Positions 36,062-43,633 of a DNA stretch of 64,000 nt are shown here, one piece after another (the stretch's first letter is position 1; every line of letters begins with the position of its first letter). The position numbers were made by a program, and so were the translations under genes. The stretch is from Escherichia coli. Lineage in GTDB: Bacteria > Pseudomonadota > Gammaproteobacteria > Enterobacterales > Enterobacteriaceae. The stretch lies in NCBI RefSeq assembly GCF_003790525.1, contig NZ_CP033635.1; one strand, given 5' to 3'. Under the pieces are notes generated by a model. That model searched no databases and had not been told where the DNA came from. It saw only the letters and a program-made list of their open reading frames with translations.

Positions 36062-37216
36062 TTACTTCAGACCGGCAGCATCGCGCAGCAGCTGCGCTTT
36101 GTCGGTTTTTTCCCACGGGAAATGTTCGCGACCAAAGTGACCGTATGCTGCGGTTTCTTTGTAGATCGGGTGCAGCAGATCCAGCATCTGAATCAGACCG
36201 TATGGACGCAGGTCAAAGAACTCACGTACCAGCAGAGTCAGTTGTTCAGAAGGCACTTTCTCGGTACCGAAAGTTTCCACCATGATAGAGGTCGGTTCAG
36301 CCACGCCGATTGCGTAGGAAACCTGAATTTCACAACGATCGGCCAGGCCAGCAGCAACGATGTTTTTCGCGACATAACGTGCTGCGTACGCTGCGGAACG
36401 GTCCACTTTTGATGGATCTTTACCAGAGAATGCACCACCACCGTGACGTGCCATGCCGCCGTAGGTATCAACGATAATTTTACGACCAGTCAGACCGCAG
36501 TCACCCATCGGGCCACCGATAACAAAACGACCGGTCGGGTTGATGAAGAATTTGGTGGCAGAAGTCAGCCATTCAGCCGGCAGAATCGGCTTGATGATCT
36601 CTTCCATTACCGCTTCTTGCAGCGATTTCTGGTCGATTTCTTCAGAGTGCTGAGTGGAAAGCACGACAGCATCGATACCAACGATTTTGCCGTCGTCATA
36701 CTGGAAAGTCACCTGGCTTTTCGCGTCCGGGCGCAGCCACGGCAGAGTGCCGTTTTTACGCACTTCAGCCTGACGCTGTACCAGACGGTGTGCATAGGTG
36801 ATAGGCGCTGGCATCAGCACGTCGGTTTCATTGGTTGCGTAGCCAAACATCAGACCCTGGTCACCCGCGCCCTGTTCCAGCGGATCGGCACGGTCAACGC
36901 CCTGGTTGATGTCAGGAGACTGTTTACCGATGGCGCTCAGAACCGCACAGGAGTTAGCGTCAAAGCCCATGTCGGAATGCACATAGCCAATTTCGCGAAC
37001 GGTGTTACGGGTGATCTCTTCGATGTCTACCCAGGCGCTGGTGGTGATTTCGCCGCCAACTAAAACCATGCCGGTTTTTACGTAGGTTTCGCAAGCAACG
37101 CGTGCTTTCGGATCCTGTTCGAGGATCGCGTCTAAAACGGCATCAGAGATTTGGTCAGCAATTTTGTCAGGATGCCCTTCAGAGACGGACTCGGACGTAA
37201 AAAGGTGTTTTGCCAT
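36062..37216 (-). CDS. metK: S-adenosylmethionine synthetase
   Basis: 384 aa from [22 protein letters not shown]... Confidence 0.95.
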
Positions 37217-37519
37217 ATTTAATATCACCTAAAGAGAATTTGGTTAGCTCAAACTGTTGTGTGGATTTTCTGTGGTAGCGGATCCTACCACGACTCTGCA
37301 GGTTAAAAACACTGGCAGTCTGAGTGTTAATCGGTATGGATGGATTAACATCTGGATGGCTATTTTAGGTCAGTTCTTCACCCAATTTCCACTTTTTTTT
37401 GAATCGTGTCTCATTCTGTTAAAAACGTGGCTGGAAATTTTTCCTGACAATGCTGGCATTCTGCGTATTTATCTTTTGCAATTTTCTGCCATTGTGGGGT
37501 ATAAAACGCGGCGCGCGGC

Positions 37520-37735
37520 TTAAATAAAAAGCACACGACGTTTCTTTCGTGTTGCCACTTCCAGCCGGGTTGAAAACAGAGTTTTGGCTTGTGGGTTCGT
37601 CTTAACAGGCGGCCGTGGAGGTGATACGAAATAATGAACCGTTGTCTGCTGCTTAACCTGTCTCACCGTTCTGGTGAAGATTCGTTCCCCGCACTCTGCA
37701 TCTCTGCTTTGCATACCTGCCGATGTTATACCCAT
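37520..37735 (-). CDS. Small hypothetical protein, possibly YqgC (71 aa)
   Basis: 71-aa ORF in metK-speA intergenic region where K-12 has small yqgC/yqgD ORFs; coding status doubtful. Confidence 0.3.
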
Positions 37736-37870
37736 CTCGGCGCTTCTCAGGATTCAAGAGCTGGTTACAGCTACTGAGGACTGAACAAGGGCGCTCTTGT
37801 AAAAACAAGAGTTTTCTCGTGGTTTCGCCGAACTGTCACACTTACGTTCGGTTATGTGCTTAATAATGTT

Positions 37871-38002
37871 ATGAAAAAGAAACCGGTTGCGCAGTTGGAG
37901 CGTCAGCATTCACTGCTGGAAAATCCATGTGCTTATGGGTTGTTATCGCAGTTCCAGGCTGCGATAGTCGTTAACTGTTTTACACTTAATAAAATAATTT
38001 GA
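37871..38002 (+). CDS. yqgB: Small acid-stress/leader peptide YqgB (43 aa)
   Basis: ATG at 37871; [43 protein letters not shown]; stops 8 nt before speA. Confidence 0.8.
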
Positions 38003-38010
38003 GGTTCGCT

Positions 38011-39987
38011 ATGTCTGACGACATGTCTATGGGTTTGCCTTCGTCAGCGGGCGAACACGGTGTACTACGCTCCATGCAGGAGGTTGCAATGAGCTCCCAG
38101 GAAGCCAGCAAGATGCTGCGTACTTACAATATTGCCTGGTGGGGCAATAACTACTATGACGTTAACGAGCTGGGCCACATTAGCGTGTGCCCGGACCCGG
38201 ACGTCCCGGAAGCTCGCGTCGATCTCGCGCAGTTAGTGAAAACTCGCGAAGCACAGGGTCAGCGTCTGCCTGCACTGTTCTGTTTCCCACAGATCCTGCA
38301 GCACCGTTTGCGTTCCATTAACGCCGCGTTCAAACGTGCGCGGGAATCCTACGGCTATAACGGCGATTACTTCCTTGTTTATCCGATCAAAGTTAACCAG
38401 CACCGTCGCGTGATTGAGTCCCTGATTCATTCGGGCGAACCGCTGGGCCTGGAAGCCGGTTCCAAAGCGGAGTTGATGGCGGTGTTGGCACATGCTGGCA
38501 TGACCCGTAGCGTCATCGTCTGCAACGGTTATAAGGACCGCGAATATATCCGCCTGGCATTAATTGGCGAGAAGATGGGCCACAAGGTCTATCTGGTCAT
38601 TGAGAAGATGTCAGAAATTGCCATTGTGCTGGATGAAGCAGAACGTCTGAATGTCGTTCCTCGTCTGGGCGTGCGTGCACGTCTGGCTTCGCAGGGCTCG
38701 GGTAAATGGCAGTCCTCCGGCGGGGAAAAATCGAAGTTCGGCCTGGCGGCGACTCAGGTACTGCAACTGGTTGAAACGCTGCGTGAAGCCGGGCGTCTCG
38801 ACAGCCTGCAACTGCTGCACTTCCACCTCGGTTCGCAGATGGCGAATATTCGCGATATCGCGACAGGCGTTCGTGAATCCGCGCGTTTCTATGTGGAACT
38901 GCACAAGCTGGGCGTCAATATTCAGTGCTTCGACGTCGGCGGCGGTCTGGGCGTGGACTATGAAGGCACCCGTTCGCAGTCCGACTGTTCGGTGAACTAC
39001 GGCCTCAATGAATACGCCAACAACATCATCTGGGCGATTGGTGATGCGTGTGAAGAAAATGGTCTGCCACATCCGACAGTAATCACCGAGTCGGGTCGTG
39101 CGGTGACTGCGCATCACACCGTGCTGGTGTCAAATATCATCGGCGTGGAACGTAACGAATACACGGTGCCGACTGCGCCTGCAGAAGACGCACCGCGCGC
39201 ATTGCAAAGCATGTGGGAAACCTGGCAGGAGATGCACGAACCGGGAACTCGCCGTTCTCTGCGTGAATGGTTACACGACAGCCAGATGGATCTGCACGAT
39301 ATTCATATCGGCTACTCTTCCGGCACCTTTAGCCTGCAAGAACGCGCATGGGCTGAGCAGCTTTATTTGAGCATGTGCCATGAAGTGCAAAAGCAGCTGG
39401 ATCCGCAAAACCGTGCTCATCGTCCGATTATCGACGAGCTGCAGGAACGTATGGCGGACAAAATGTACGTCAACTTCTCGCTGTTCCAGTCGATGCCGGA
39501 TGCGTGGGGGATCGACCAGTTGTTCCCGGTTCTGCCGCTGGAAGGGTTGGATCAAGTGCCGGAACGCCGCGCTGTGCTGCTGGATATTACCTGTGACTCT
39601 GACGGTGCTATTGATCACTATATTGATGGTGATGGTATTGCCACGACAATGCCAATGCCGGAGTACGATCCAGAGAATCCGCCGATGCTCGGTTTCTTCA
39701 TGGTCGGCGCATATCAGGAGATCCTCGGCAACATGCACAACCTGTTCGGTGATACCGAAGCGGTTGACGTGTTCGTCTTCCCTGACGGCAGCGTAGAAGT
39801 AGAACTGTCTGACGAAGGCGATACCGTGGCGGATATGCTGCAATATGTACAGCTCGATCCGAAAACGTTGTTAACCCAGTTCCGTGATCAAGTGAAGAAA
39901 ACCGATCTTGATGCTGAACTGCAACAACAGTTCCTTGAAGAGTTCGAGGCAGGTTTGTACGGTTATACCTATCTTGAAGATGAATAA
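38011..39987 (+). CDS. speA: Biosynthetic arginine decarboxylase
   Basis: 658 aa from [18 protein letters not shown]... Confidence 0.95.
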
Positions 39988-40004
39988 TTAAGATTATTCC
40001 GCTG

Positions 40005-40045
40005 GCGGGTCGATTTATTTACGTAAATCGGCCCGCTTTCTTTTT
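40005..40045 (+). terminator. Rho-independent terminator after speA
   Basis: 13-bp imperfect stem GCGGGTCGATTTA / TAAATCGGCCCGC followed by TTTCTTTTT. Confidence 0.7.
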
Positions 40046-40132
40046 ATATATTCTTAAAAATAATTTAGCTGCTTTTCTTATTAAATAATCCCCCTACAAT
40101 CGCTGCATTAATTAAATGCAGAGGGAACGGTT

Positions 40133-40864
40133 ATGAAAAAATGGAAAGTACGTAGCGCGTTGATAGCATTAGCCGTGCTGCTGGCCGGTTGTTCCAGTAA
40201 TGCGCAGTATAATAGCAGTGCATCAGGCAATGTCGGCACCGCCTGGGGTGGGGATGTGCACTCATCGGTTCAGGGCGTATCTGCTGAACGAGTCTGGCGC
40301 GATCCGGCAGAGATGATCGTTATTAGTTATTCGACTACTGTTCCTTCGGGCTACGACCGCGTTTATAGCATTCGTATTAACGAACTTGAATATGCTATTC
40401 GCGATGGTAATTTTAATTCTCTACCTATTACGCGGGTTTATGATTCGTCAAATAATGAACCACGCTATATTGTCCATGCCAGAGTAGGAATGAATTATCA
40501 ATTATATGTCCGCAATTACAGTCGTAATACCAACTACGAGATCGTTGCTACGGTTGATGGCCTGGATGTGCTGAACGGCAAGCAAGGTTCGCTGAATAAC
40601 AACGGCTATATTGTGAATGCCGGAGATTCGTTAGCGATTAAAGGATTCCGCAAAGATAAACATACCGAAGCGGCTTTTCAGTTCGCCAACGTTGTTGATT
40701 CCTACGCAGCCAATTCGGCGCAAGGCGATGTGCGTAATACCGGTGTAATCGGCTTTGCCGCCTTTGAATTACAAGGCCCGGCGCAAAACGCGCTGCCGCC
40801 GTGCTCTGGACAAGCCTTTCCGGCGGACAACAATGGCTATGCGCCGCCACCGTGTCGGAAATAG
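40133..40864 (+). CDS. Hypothetical lipoprotein (243 aa), not recalled in K-12 at this site
   Basis: Signal peptide with lipobox LLAGCSS; Asn/Tyr-rich; no recognised domain; own terminator downstream. Confidence 0.6.
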   Translation: MKKWKVRSALIALAVLLAGCSSNAQYNSSASGNVGTAWGGDVHSSVQGVSAERVWRDPAEMIVISYSTTVPSGYDRVYSIRINELEYAIRDGNFNSLPITRVYDSSNNEPRYIVHARVGMNYQLYVRNYSRNTNYEIVATVDGLDVLNGKQGSLNNNGYIVNAGDSLAIKGFRKDKHTEAAFQFANVVDSYAANSAQGDVRNTGVIGFAAFELQGPAQNALPPCSGQAFPADNNGYAPPPCRK

Positions 40865-40931
40865 CAACCTCGCTTGATGCCTCGTCCATTTAAGGCGATA
40901 ATTAGCGCAAACTTGTGTTTCGCAAATCCAA

Positions 40932-40971
40932 CCCTTCCTCGTCGGGCCTAACGACGCGGAAGGGTTTTTTT
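40932..40971 (+). terminator. Rho-independent terminator after the inserted lipoprotein gene
   Basis: Stem CCCTTCCTCGTCG / CGACGCGGAAGGG (one mismatch) followed by TTTTTTT. Confidence 0.7.
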
Positions 40972-40999
40972 ATATCGACTTTGTAATAGGAGTCCATCC

Positions 41000-41920
41000 A
41001 TGAGCACCTTAGGTCATCAATACGATAACTCACTGGTTTCCAACGCCTTTGGTTTTTTACGCCTGCCGATGAACTTCCAGCCATATGACAGCGATGCTGA
41101 CTGGGTGATTACTGGCGTGCCGTTCGATATGGCCACTTCTGGTCGTGCGGGTGGTCGCCACGGTCCGGCAGCGATCCGTCAGGTTTCGACGAATCTGGCC
41201 TGGGAACACAATCGCTTCCCGTGGAATTTCGACATGCGTGAGCGCCTGAACGTCGTGGACTGCGGCGATCTGGTATATGCCTTCGGAGATGCCCGTGAGA
41301 TGAGCGAGAAGCTGCAGGCGCACGCCGAGAAGCTGCTGGCTGCCGGTAAGCGTATGCTCTCCTTCGGTGGTGACCACTTTGTTACGCTGCCGCTGCTGCG
41401 TGCTCATGCGAAGCATTTCGGTAAAATGGCGCTGGTACACTTTGACGCCCATACCGATACCTACGCTAACGGTTGTGAATTTGACCACGGCACCATGTTC
41501 TATACCGCGCCGAAAGAAGGTCTGATCGACCCGAATCATTCCGTGCAGATTGGTATTCGTACCGAGTTTGATAAAGACAACGGCTTTACCGTGCTGGACG
41601 CCTGCCAGGTGAACGATCGCAGCGTGGATGACGTTATCGCTCAGGTGAAACAGATTGTAGGTGATATGCCGGTTTACCTGACCTTTGATATCGACTGCCT
41701 GGATCCTGCTTTCGCGCCGGGAACCGGTACGCCAGTAATTGGCGGCCTGACCTCCGATCGCGCTATTAAACTGGTACGCGGCCTGAAAGATCTCAACATT
41801 GTTGGGATGGACGTAGTGGAAGTGGCTCCGGCATACGATCAGTCGGAAATCACCGCTCTGGCTGCGGCGACGCTGGCGCTGGAAATGCTGTATATTCAGG
41901 CGGCGAAAAAGGGCGAGTAA
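41000..41920 (+). CDS. speB: Agmatinase
   Basis: 306 aa; arginase-fold metal ligands (DAHTD, DIDCLDP). Confidence 0.95.
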
Positions 41921-42070
41921 GTCATCTGCCTGGTTGAATTTTTTACACAGTCCCTTGTCTGGCACAAGGGACTTATCATTTAAAACCTATCCTGTTAATT
42001 AAGTCATCTTTACCCTGACTGCTGTTTTTTTAATGGATTGTTATTATCACGTTTTTAATGGAATAAATAG

Positions 42071-43633
42071 ATGGAACGCACTCTTCCCTGGAAGCCCCTT
42101 CTTTGTTTGTTATTTCTTTTATCAACTGGCTGCGATAGAGCAGAAAAACAGAAAATTGCCGCACAGCTGCAACAAGACAAAGAAGCTATTTCCTCTGTCG
42201 TCAAAAAGAGTTATCGCGCATTATGTGGCCCTGAGTTTGTCACCAGCACAGATTCGCACGATCGCCTTGCGGAAATGCAGCAAGTATTTACACCTGCTTT
42301 AATGGAGCCTGTACTGAAATACTGGCAAGAGTCACCCAAAACGTGTAAACGACGTTTCCCCAGTTATAGCGATCCTTCAGCGACCTTCGTCGAAGGCGAC
42401 AAGGCGCAGATTGGTGCTTTTTTTGGTCACCAATCTTATATTGATATTCCAATGGAGTTAATCCGGCAAGGGGATGGTAAATGGAAGATTACTGCGATTG
42501 ATTTTGCATCGTTACACGAGTTTGAAAAAAACGGTCGGGTTACTGGTGAGGTGCAGAAGCAAATAGATTTGCTTAAAAAACGCTCATTCAAGCAACATAG
42601 GGATTCCCCTGTGCTGACGAGGACCGCGCCAGAGCGGGTCAGTAAGTCCCCTTTGACATCGATGGAGCAAACAGTTACGGAGCAAGACTCTTCCTGGCTG
42701 GATGTCTTACTGACAATAGGCAAATATGCCCTTTATCTGGTAGCGATAATACTTATTCTCGCCTTGGTGGCTGTTTTGTGGATTGGTTATGGCCTGGTGT
42801 TCGCCGGACATCGCCTTTTCAAAGCATCCTGTAGAGATCCCTCAATTCAAAAAATTCCTGTGGCTGAACGTTGGGCAATGGCAGTCGGCGCGCCTTATGC
42901 CATTGCGGGTAACAATCACTGGGCGCGACGAGTCGTTAATGATGATTCCGTGGAAGCAGAGAATGATTGCAAAAATGAAGTGGAGTCCCTTGCTGACATG
43001 TGGGGCGTCTTTGATCGGGATTCGTTACTTGAGCAACTCTTAGCTTTGTTTGTAGCAGGACATCGTCCAGTTTATGAAGAACAGATCAAAAACGATAGCG
43101 AAATGCCGGATGCTGAATATCGCGCGTTCGCTCAGCAATTAGCTCAGAACGCGAAATCAAGTAGCGAAGCGAAAGAGCGTTTGTGGCAGCTACAGATGGT
43201 CAGAAAAAATCGACGTAAAATATGCGATATAGATTTTTGTGCCTGGGATATGGTGCGTTTTGTCATGCTATGTAATAGCGGGGCGCAAGTGGGATACATT
43301 ACCCAGCGTGAAATGGTCGATTTTTCGATGCTGGCAGCCAGACGCGTACAGCAACATTACAGAAGCTGGCGCGAATTGGCCGGGCATTTTTTGCTGGCCC
43401 GTTGGTACTGGAAAGCAACGGATAAACGGCACCTGATTACCCATATTCTTTTTAAGAAAGCCATTACATCTTTATTAGAAGAGCAGGGGAGTCCGTGGCG
43501 TACTTTACCCTGGGATACTCCATTACCTGAAGGAACAGAGACGGCTTTTGCCTGGGCTTGTGGCGTAAGCACTGCCGATGTCGTAGAGGTGCGATCGGAT
43601 ACACCAGATAAAGCAATCTACGAAGCGAATTGA
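42071..43633 (+). CDS. Hypothetical lipoprotein/membrane protein (520 aa) with possible DUF1266-like C-terminal domain
   Basis: Lipobox LLSTGC; one central TM helix (LYLVAIILILALVAVLWIGYGLVFAG); C-terminal AWDMVR...GYITQRE...YRSWREL pattern reminiscent of DUF1266 (YbeU/YbeR-like), from memory. Confidence 0.55.
   Translation: MERTLPWKPLLCLLFLLSTGCDRAEKQKIAAQLQQDKEAISSVVKKSYRALCGPEFVTSTDSHDRLAEMQQVFTPALMEPVLKYWQESPKTCKRRFPSYSDPSATFVEGDKAQIGAFFGHQSYIDIPMELIRQGDGKWKITAIDFASLHEFEKNGRVTGEVQKQIDLLKKRSFKQHRDSPVLTRTAPERVSKSPLTSMEQTVTEQDSSWLDVLLTIGKYALYLVAIILILALVAVLWIGYGLVFAGHRLFKASCRDPSIQKIPVAERWAMAVGAPYAIAGNNHWARRVVNDDSVEAENDCKNEVESLADMWGVFDRDSLLEQLLALFVAGHRPVYEEQIKNDSEMPDAEYRAFAQQLAQNAKSSSEAKERLWQLQMVRKNRRKICDIDFCAWDMVRFVMLCNSGAQVGYITQREMVDFSMLAARRVQQHYRSWRELAGHFLLARWYWKATDKRHLITHILFKKAITSLLEEQGSPWRTLPWDTPLPEGTETAFAWACGVSTADVVEVRSDTPDKAIYEAN

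Follow-up and report, generated by a model that had tools for sequence, protein, structure and literature searches.

Between speA and speB, the genes for biosynthetic arginine decarboxylase and agmatinase, the stretch of Escherichia coli DNA analysed here (64,000 nucleotides of contig NZ_CP033635.1, hereafter the window) carries a gene for a predicted lipoprotein at a place where E. coli K-12 MG1655 has no gene. Was this gene recently inserted, or is it K-12 that lost it? A preliminary description took the first view, calling the gene an orphan inserted with its own terminator. We arrived at the opposite direction of change: the gene, encoding a lipoprotein, has been vertically inherited directly after speA since before the genera of Enterobacteriaceae split and was lost or replaced in the K-12 lineage, a reading to which we assign a probability of roughly 80%. 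The three genes concerned are as follows, in window coordinates.

40133..40864, + strand: lipoprotein coding sequence, 243 amino acids; evidence from the RefSeq coding sequence, the lipobox, the ratio of nonsynonymous to synonymous substitution rates (dN/dS) and an AlphaFold model
38011..39987, + strand: speA, biosynthetic arginine decarboxylase, left neighbour
41000..41920, + strand: speB, agmatinase, right neighbour

The position of the gene is shared far beyond E. coli. All other Escherichia species sampled have it directly after speA, and so do at least 10 genera of enterobacteria. A synteny scan using one genome per species recovered 15 Enterobacteriaceae loci with the context speA-gene-speB(-loiP-tkt), namely from E. 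coli, E. albertii, E. whittamii, two cryptic Escherichia, three Citrobacter, Kluyvera, Klebsiella, Intestinirhabdus, Phytobacter, Kosakonia, Entomohabitans and Enterobacter; among these 15, one contig begins inside the gene and at one locus the ORF (open reading frame) caller replaced speB by an antisense ORF. The orthologue of Klebsiella aerogenes (61% identity) is located between speA and speB, and that of Salmonella (74% identity) is located directly 3' of speA, followed by a GntR/mannitol-dehydrogenase cluster at the place of E. coli speB. Occupation of the same site in Salmonella, Klebsiella, other Escherichia and further genera contradicts the claim that the gene had been inserted, as does the lack of repeats and mobility genes around it. 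No direct repeats flank the gene at its junctions; the only repeats that turned up are short, 73-80% identical, and do not correspond to the junctions in K-12. The annotation of E. coli GF131, a strain that matches the window closely (see below), lists no insertion sequence (IS) element, integrase or tRNA near the gene, and there are no true plasmid copies, the matches labelled 'plasmid' being mislabelled chromosomes or megareplicons. Because the gene occupies the same place in outgroups and shows no hallmarks of insertion, we take the K-12 state to be the derived one.

Within E. coli, two alleles of the intergenic region account for 5409 of 5426 complete genomes. The full speA-gene-speB arrangement (the long allele) is present in 3542 of these genomes (65%), including O157:H7 and many human isolates. 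A 60-bp sequence characteristic of K-12 (the short allele) occurs in 1867 genomes, once in each, with at least 99% identity in 1791; carriers include K-12, BL21(DE3), Rosetta and several enterotoxigenic E. coli (ETEC) and bovine strains. From the speA stop codon to the speB start codon the distance is 1012 bp in the window and 137 bp in MG1655, in good agreement with the spacing of about 140 bp given for K-12 in the preliminary description, and alignment with MG1655 revealed no orthologue between its speA and speB.

The short allele complicates this history, and its divergence weighs against loss in the simplest form. Identity between its spacer and the long allele is only about 60%, compared with 97-98% for the flanking speA and speB, and by this measure it does not look like a simple recent deletion from the E. 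coli long allele. The difference in identity argues that the short allele is old or imported rather than a fresh deletion, and it may be either an old deletion or an import by recombination between speA and the highly conserved hairpin and speB that follow. No recombination tract was seen beside the K-12 junction, where the flanks differ by 0-8 positions per 100 nt in three pairwise comparisons. The K-12 60 bp reaches from the speA stop codon to the position matching window position 40923 (K-12 L001:3289-3348 against window 40865-40922), and its alignment to window 40865-40922 is better than those of 1983 out of 2000 shuffled sequences. We considered whether these 60 bp might be unrelated filler and rejected this, as a multi-genus alignment shows that the -35/17/-10 architecture of a promoter-like site close to speB has been kept. 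The short allele thus consists of a diverged copy of the speB-proximal promoter, without the speA terminator, the putative promoter of the lipoprotein gene or its coding sequence. These elements are located as follows.

39988..40045, + strand: predicted speA-proximal intrinsic terminator; stem 40004-40037, then a T-run; absent from K-12
40071..40100, + strand: putative own promoter of the lipoprotein gene; T-rich block GCTGCTTTTCTT, -10 hexamer TACAAT at 40095-40100
40103..40125, + strand: hairpin CTGCATT/AATGCAG in the 5' untranslated region (5'-UTR), abutting the Shine-Dalgarno sequence; -7.9 kcal/mol, z -2.6
40874..40902, + strand: promoter-like site by speB, TTGATG-17-GATAAT, with the -10 element at 40897-40902; from a consensus scan and the multi-genus alignment
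40930..40973, + strand: downstream hairpin with U7; stem 40930-40966, 27 nt 5' of the speB start codon

A hairpin on each side of the gene had already been described, and both are borne out by folding energies of -23.4 kcal/mol (z -5.3) for the upstream and -24.4 kcal/mol (z -4.3) for the downstream one. Both have the GC-rich stem, U-tract and covariation expected of intrinsic terminators and are predicted to terminate transcription. The upstream hairpin has a 15-bp stem in which 8 of 14 pairs keep pairing despite changes on both sides across 12 enterobacterial sequences; being specific to the long allele, it would be the upstream terminator of speA. The downstream hairpin is followed by T7 and has undergone compensatory exchanges, from A-U to U-A in Kluyvera and from C-G to U-A in K. 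spallanzanii, and a different hairpin, without a U-tract, precedes speB in Phytobacter, Kosakonia and Intestinirhabdus. The preliminary description had assigned this hairpin (at 40932-40971) to the lipoprotein gene as its own terminator, which does not agree with its conservation: K-12 has an identical hairpin, and over 45 nt the one in K. aerogenes is 97.8% identical. The lipoprotein transcript would end at this hairpin, which may also act as an attenuator in the leader of speB. The latter possibility arises because the promoter-like site lies about 27 nt upstream of the hairpin, which would place the hairpin in the speB 5' leader if that promoter is real. To our knowledge, agmatine induction of speB has no known mechanism. 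A search of Rfam over window positions 37200-42100 (E<=1) returned no family for either hairpin or for the untranslated regions.

Evidence for a separate promoter of the lipoprotein gene comes from comparison among genera. A TACNNT hexamer, located 30-40 nt 5' of the ATG and preceded by a T-rich block, is found in Escherichia, Salmonella, Citrobacter, Klebsiella and Enterobacter, reading TACAAT, TACACT, TACTAT or TACCAT depending on the genus. Against it stand the poor -35 and the failure of the consensus scan to call the site; the pattern suggests a promoter of the gene's own with a weak -35 element. Translation would start from a Shine-Dalgarno sequence GAGGG (40121-40125), 7 nt 5' of the ATG. 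The 5'-UTR hairpin beside it might conceivably control translation; at the corresponding place Salmonella has a hairpin whose stem differs in sequence (CCCCCU/AGGGGG) and takes in the Shine-Dalgarno sequence, and K. aerogenes has none. Close to speB, the core 'GGCGATAAT' of the promoter-like site is conserved in Escherichia, Citrobacter, Kluyvera, Enterobacter, Klebsiella and Entomohabitans and reads 'GCCGATAAT' in Phytobacter and Kosakonia; the K-12 version, TTGAAT-17-GATAAT, lies at the same distance from the hairpin as that of the long allele (19-20 nt). With strong predicted terminators on both sides and a conserved promoter-like site of its own, the lipoprotein gene is most likely an independent transcription unit.

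The window is 100% identical to GF131 (NZ_CP172134.1; from chicken meat, Switzerland) across the queried stretches of 1.6 kb and 1.75 kb. The gene order in the GF131 annotation is metK (- strand), yqgD, yqgG, yqgB, speA, the lipoprotein ORF, speB, a DUF1266 gene, loiP (- strand) and tkt. Further along, between tkt and cmtB, in a region that the window also covers, the same annotation has a gene for a prohibitin-family protein (L012:15092-16000, - strand), which is not known from K-12 at this position.

RefSeq makes an identical coding-sequence call in GF131 (WP_023141972.1), and its product names for this sequence vary by genome among 'hypothetical protein', 'lipoprotein' and 'membrane protein'. 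The 243-residue reading frame at 40133-40864 is therefore the one originally described, lipobox LLAGCSS included. The dN/dS of the gene is 0.09-0.15 in comparisons with O157, E. whittamii, Salmonella and K. aerogenes; at 0.009, speB evolves more slowly. Judged by these ratios the gene is functional and under purifying selection, and together with 290 homologues at E<=1e-3 they show that the reading frame has not arisen by chance.

These homologues, found by a word-indexed search and including proteins from Salmonella, Klebsiella, Citrobacter, Variovorax and Paracoccus, also speak against calling the gene an orphan. Homologues in Salmonella, Citrobacter, Klebsiella, Kluyvera and Raoultella are 56-74% identical to the window protein, and those of Providencia, Neisseria, Variovorax, Paracoccus and others are 35-43% identical; an E. 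fergusonii protein falls in the same 90% cluster as the window lipoprotein. A profile built from 45 members matched 4273 clusters (defined at 50% identity) at E<=1e-3 in a set of 1.84 billion representatives; at E<=1e-10 the number was 3298. Matches in AFDB50 came from Gamma-, Beta- and Alphaproteobacteria, Verrucomicrobia and Myxococcota under the names 'lipoprotein', 'outer membrane lipoprotein' and 'uncharacterized'. We also came across a 63%-identical copy outside the speA-speB context in a Citrobacter isolate (L022 / L023:8001-8729); the record 'Chryseobacterium sp. 18061' has the same layout and match statistics as this copy and is probably mislabelled or contaminated.

Despite its size, the family is described by no curated resource, and the E. 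coli gene is annotated and uncharacterised. The window protein has no Pfam match even at E<=10, in keeping with the earlier remark that it contains no recognisable domain, and 45 + 38 scanned family members have none at E<=0.001. Matches in NCBIfam were below threshold and covered the signal peptide, no relative was found in the Protein Data Bank (PDB) by sequence or by profile, PADLOC returned no match, and our literature search found no paper mentioning the gene.

The N-terminus carries a textbook lipoprotein signal. It reads MKKWKVRSALIALAVLLAG up to the predicted cleavage site and CSS after it, giving a signal peptide of residues 1-19 with a positively charged n-region, a hydrophobic core and the lipobox L-A-G-C (here LLAG before the Cys), and Cys20 (codon at 40190-40192) is invariant in all 45 aligned homologues. 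The protein is accordingly predicted to be a lipoprotein and a substrate of signal peptidase II. The residues at +2 and +3 after the lipobox Cys are Ser-Ser, with no Asp at +2, and under the +2 rule this Ser would direct Lol-dependent sorting to the outer membrane. The mature protein, of about 24 kDa, comprises a short linker (residues 21-33), a beta-sandwich domain (residues 35-213) and a conserved Pro-rich C-terminal tail, FPADNNGYAPPPCRK, with Cys214 and Cys241. As had been noted, the protein is rich in Asn (23 of 243 residues, 9.5%) and Tyr (14 of 243, 5.8%).

In the family alignment, a variable linker is followed by a conserved block LGTxWGE...R...P...Y and by a strongly conserved core, Y-E-[IV]-V-A-T-V-D-G-L-D-V-x-x-G ... 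G-Y ... G-F-R-K ... A-A-F-R-F ... Y-A-A-N ... N-x-G-V-I-G-x-A-x-F. The linker ranges from about 13 to about 140 residues, and the long members (up to 384 residues) have Pro/Ala-rich linkers and no added Pfam domain. The globular domain has no invariant His or Cys in this alignment; its invariant positions are mostly Gly, aromatic residues, Asp, Glu, Arg and Asn, and they include W38, R53, Y66, Y122, N128, E136, D142, Y159, R173 and Y191. The tail, FPxD...YAPPPx[YC][RK], is conserved at the extreme C-terminus, and in enterobacterial members as well as in Trabulsiella and Providencia it is bracketed by two Cys, which in the oxidising periplasm probably form a disulfide (Cys214-Cys241 in the window protein) closing the tail in enterics. 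Two homologues, P0237 and P0240, are natural circular permutants in which the segment 'GTxYGE...V.F.R...Y' comes after the core and before the tail FPAE..YAPPPP. The tail stays C-terminal in these proteins, and the permutation suggests that the N-terminal hairpin and the C-terminal tail are neighbours in space.

An AlphaFold2 model built with the 45-sequence alignment is confident and all-beta (mean predicted local distance difference test score, pLDDT, 82.6; predicted template modelling score, pTM, 0.78). Per-residue scores are about 82-98 for residues 31-210 and low for the linker and for residues 217-233. The model is a sandwich with a weak resemblance to the broad MATH/DUF7918 type, a likeness rather than membership, as there is no profile match.

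What such a protein might do can be proposed only tentatively. We suggest, as a possibility well short of even odds, that it is a non-enzymatic binding or adaptor module that faces the periplasm from a tether in the outer membrane. The absence of a conserved His or Cys in the domain, the absence of catalytic-domain relatives, the MATH-like sandwich, the variable tether and the conserved terminal peptide all point in this direction. In such a scheme the speA terminator, the gene's own promoter and the downstream hairpin would set it apart as a separate transcription unit; processing by Lgt, LspA and Lnt would lipidate Cys20, and Lol would carry the protein to the outer membrane, from which the domain would hang into the periplasm on its short tether. 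The surface of the sandwich might then bind a peptide or an envelope ligand, as MATH/TRAF-type sandwiches do, with the protein's own Pro-rich tail possibly serving as an intra- or intermolecular ligand or regulator. That a third of E. coli have naturally lost the gene shows that the lipoprotein can be dispensed with in many niches.

Three considerations count against a binding role. The structural likenesses are weak and of a general kind, which makes 'MATH-like binder' a lead and not a classification; the invariant residues E136, D142 and R173, with several Tyr, could just as well belong to a catalytic or metal site; and we found neither experiments nor literature supporting any function for the lipoprotein. 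The second of these is the basis of the alternative that survives best, although we regard it as unlikely: an enzyme acting on an envelope polymer, peptidoglycan or another glycan, with E136, D142, Y122, Y159, R173 and W38 making up an active site on the beta-sandwich.

Less probable still is a link to polyamines, in which the protein would be an envelope sensor or binder of agmatine or putrescine, or a partner of an envelope-associated arginine decarboxylase. It is suggested by the fact that at least 10 genera have kept the gene between speA and speB. The family may also have a second polyamine-gene neighbourhood, in Trabulsiella guamensis, where a 41%-identical homologue (L007:6001-6759) lies between a DUF1161 (ynfD-like) gene and a UPF0257 (ynfC-like) gene, two genes away from a 185-residue acetyltransferase that we take to be speG-like from its size, Pfam matches and neighbours; this recalls a ynfB-speG-ynfC-ynfD type of neighbourhood, and it may be coincidence. 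But the predicted terminators on both sides and the putative separate promoter set the gene apart from speA and speB, a third of E. coli have lost it with both of these intact, and outside Enterobacteriaceae the family occupies unrelated sites: between metJ and a small beta-barrel outer-membrane protein followed by rpmE in Providencia, next to recO in Gilliamella, beside mltG and a gene for a small lipoprotein in Neisseria, and between hisD and hisC of the histidine operon in Comamonadaceae/Variovorax (L009:6001-7171, L010 and L047:7839-9039). Neighbour clustering over 80 loci found no partner gene conserved across orders, with no target ORF found at 17 of the loci and an ORF caller that is crude in high-GC genomes. 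The gene behaves as a stand-alone unit lodged between housekeeping operons. If the polyamine link were true, polyamine genetics would have missed a component for decades, K-12 and B strains being without the gene, and the loss in K-12 would also have taken the speA terminator and changed the feed of transcription into speB.

Marginally weaker than the polyamine link is the idea of a periplasmic immunity or inhibitor lipoprotein directed against a toxin or a host or competitor enzyme, like MliC/PliC or the immunity proteins of type VI secretion systems (T6SS). A small, non-essential protein tethered to the outer membrane and encoded by a stand-alone gene that is patchy within the species would suit this role, and in Comamonadaceae the family member is paired with a small secreted two-Cys protein (115-142 residues, no Pfam match). 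At none of the loci examined, however, is a neighbour an effector or toxin gene, and the vertical inheritance, the purifying rather than diversifying selection, the lack of a PADLOC match and the lack of a structural match to known inhibitor folds all argue the other way.

Base composition and a neighbouring gene bear on the insertion with which we began. The GC content at third codon positions (GC3) is 0.47 in the lipoprotein gene and 0.62 in the speA and speB of the window, and the orthologues are likewise lower than their speA and speB (0.49 against 0.65 in Salmonella, 0.51 against 0.74 in Klebsiella); the low GC3 is therefore an old property of the gene and not a sign of recent import. A 520-residue DUF1266 gene (window 42071-43633, + strand) lies between speB and loiP, 150 bp 3' of speB. 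It is missing at this site in K-12 and O157:H7 and is carried by 211 of the 5426 complete E. coli genomes (about 4%). The true accessory insertion in this neighbourhood is the DUF1266 gene and not the gene for the lipoprotein. That the lipoprotein gene is an orphan recently inserted with its own terminator in this strain, with K-12 in the original state, is thus highly improbable: its absence from K-12, its GC3 below that of its neighbours and the true insertion downstream of speB can be cited in favour, and the idea is refuted by synteny in the outgroups, which comprise at least 10 genera, and in every other Escherichia species sampled, by the absence of target-site duplications, IS elements, integrases and tRNAs, by the low GC3 common to Salmonella and Klebsiella, by the presence of the downstream hairpin in K-12 and by the 65% of E. 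coli that carry the gene.

Vertical inheritance with loss in the K-12 lineage corrects the direction of the event: the textbook arrangement, in which speA and speB are neighbours 137 bp apart, fits only about a third of sequenced E. coli, and in the majority a speA terminator and an intervening gene could alter the dependence of speB on read-through from speA. Small envelope genes are commonly present or absent between phylogroups, and a presence/absence polymorphism of this kind is ordinary and holds nothing surprising for a specialist. The family to which the gene belongs is large and unstudied, with about 4300 clusters from Proteobacteria to Myxococcota and Verrucomicrobia and a confident fold prediction, and was probably overlooked because the model strain is without the gene. 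Its circular permutants and Pro-rich C-terminal motif offer handles for structure-function work.

Among known systems, the model has a weak fold likeness to two groups of proteins. One is the MATH/TRAF-C peptide-binding beta-sandwich of USP7, SPOP and TRAF1/6. The other is the fungal DUF7918, including domains linked to RING and GRF, whose Pfam model does not match the window protein even at E<=10; DUF7918 proteins have no known function and, unlike the protein predicted here, are eukaryotic, cytosolic and not lipoproteins. With Gram-negative outer-membrane lipoproteins that depend on signal peptidase II and Lol, the window protein shares the signal, the short unstructured tether and a globular periplasmic domain, and it differs from described lipoprotein families in that this domain is without a sequence match in Pfam, NCBIfam or the PDB. 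At the level of the locus, the window and K-12 have in common speA, speB, the -35/17/-10 architecture of the speB-proximal promoter and the hairpin with U7 before speB. They differ in what lies between: K-12 has a 137-bp spacer, whereas the window and 65% of E. coli have the speA terminator and a separate gene, so that transcription reading through from speA to speB would have two predicted terminators to pass in the long allele and one in K-12.

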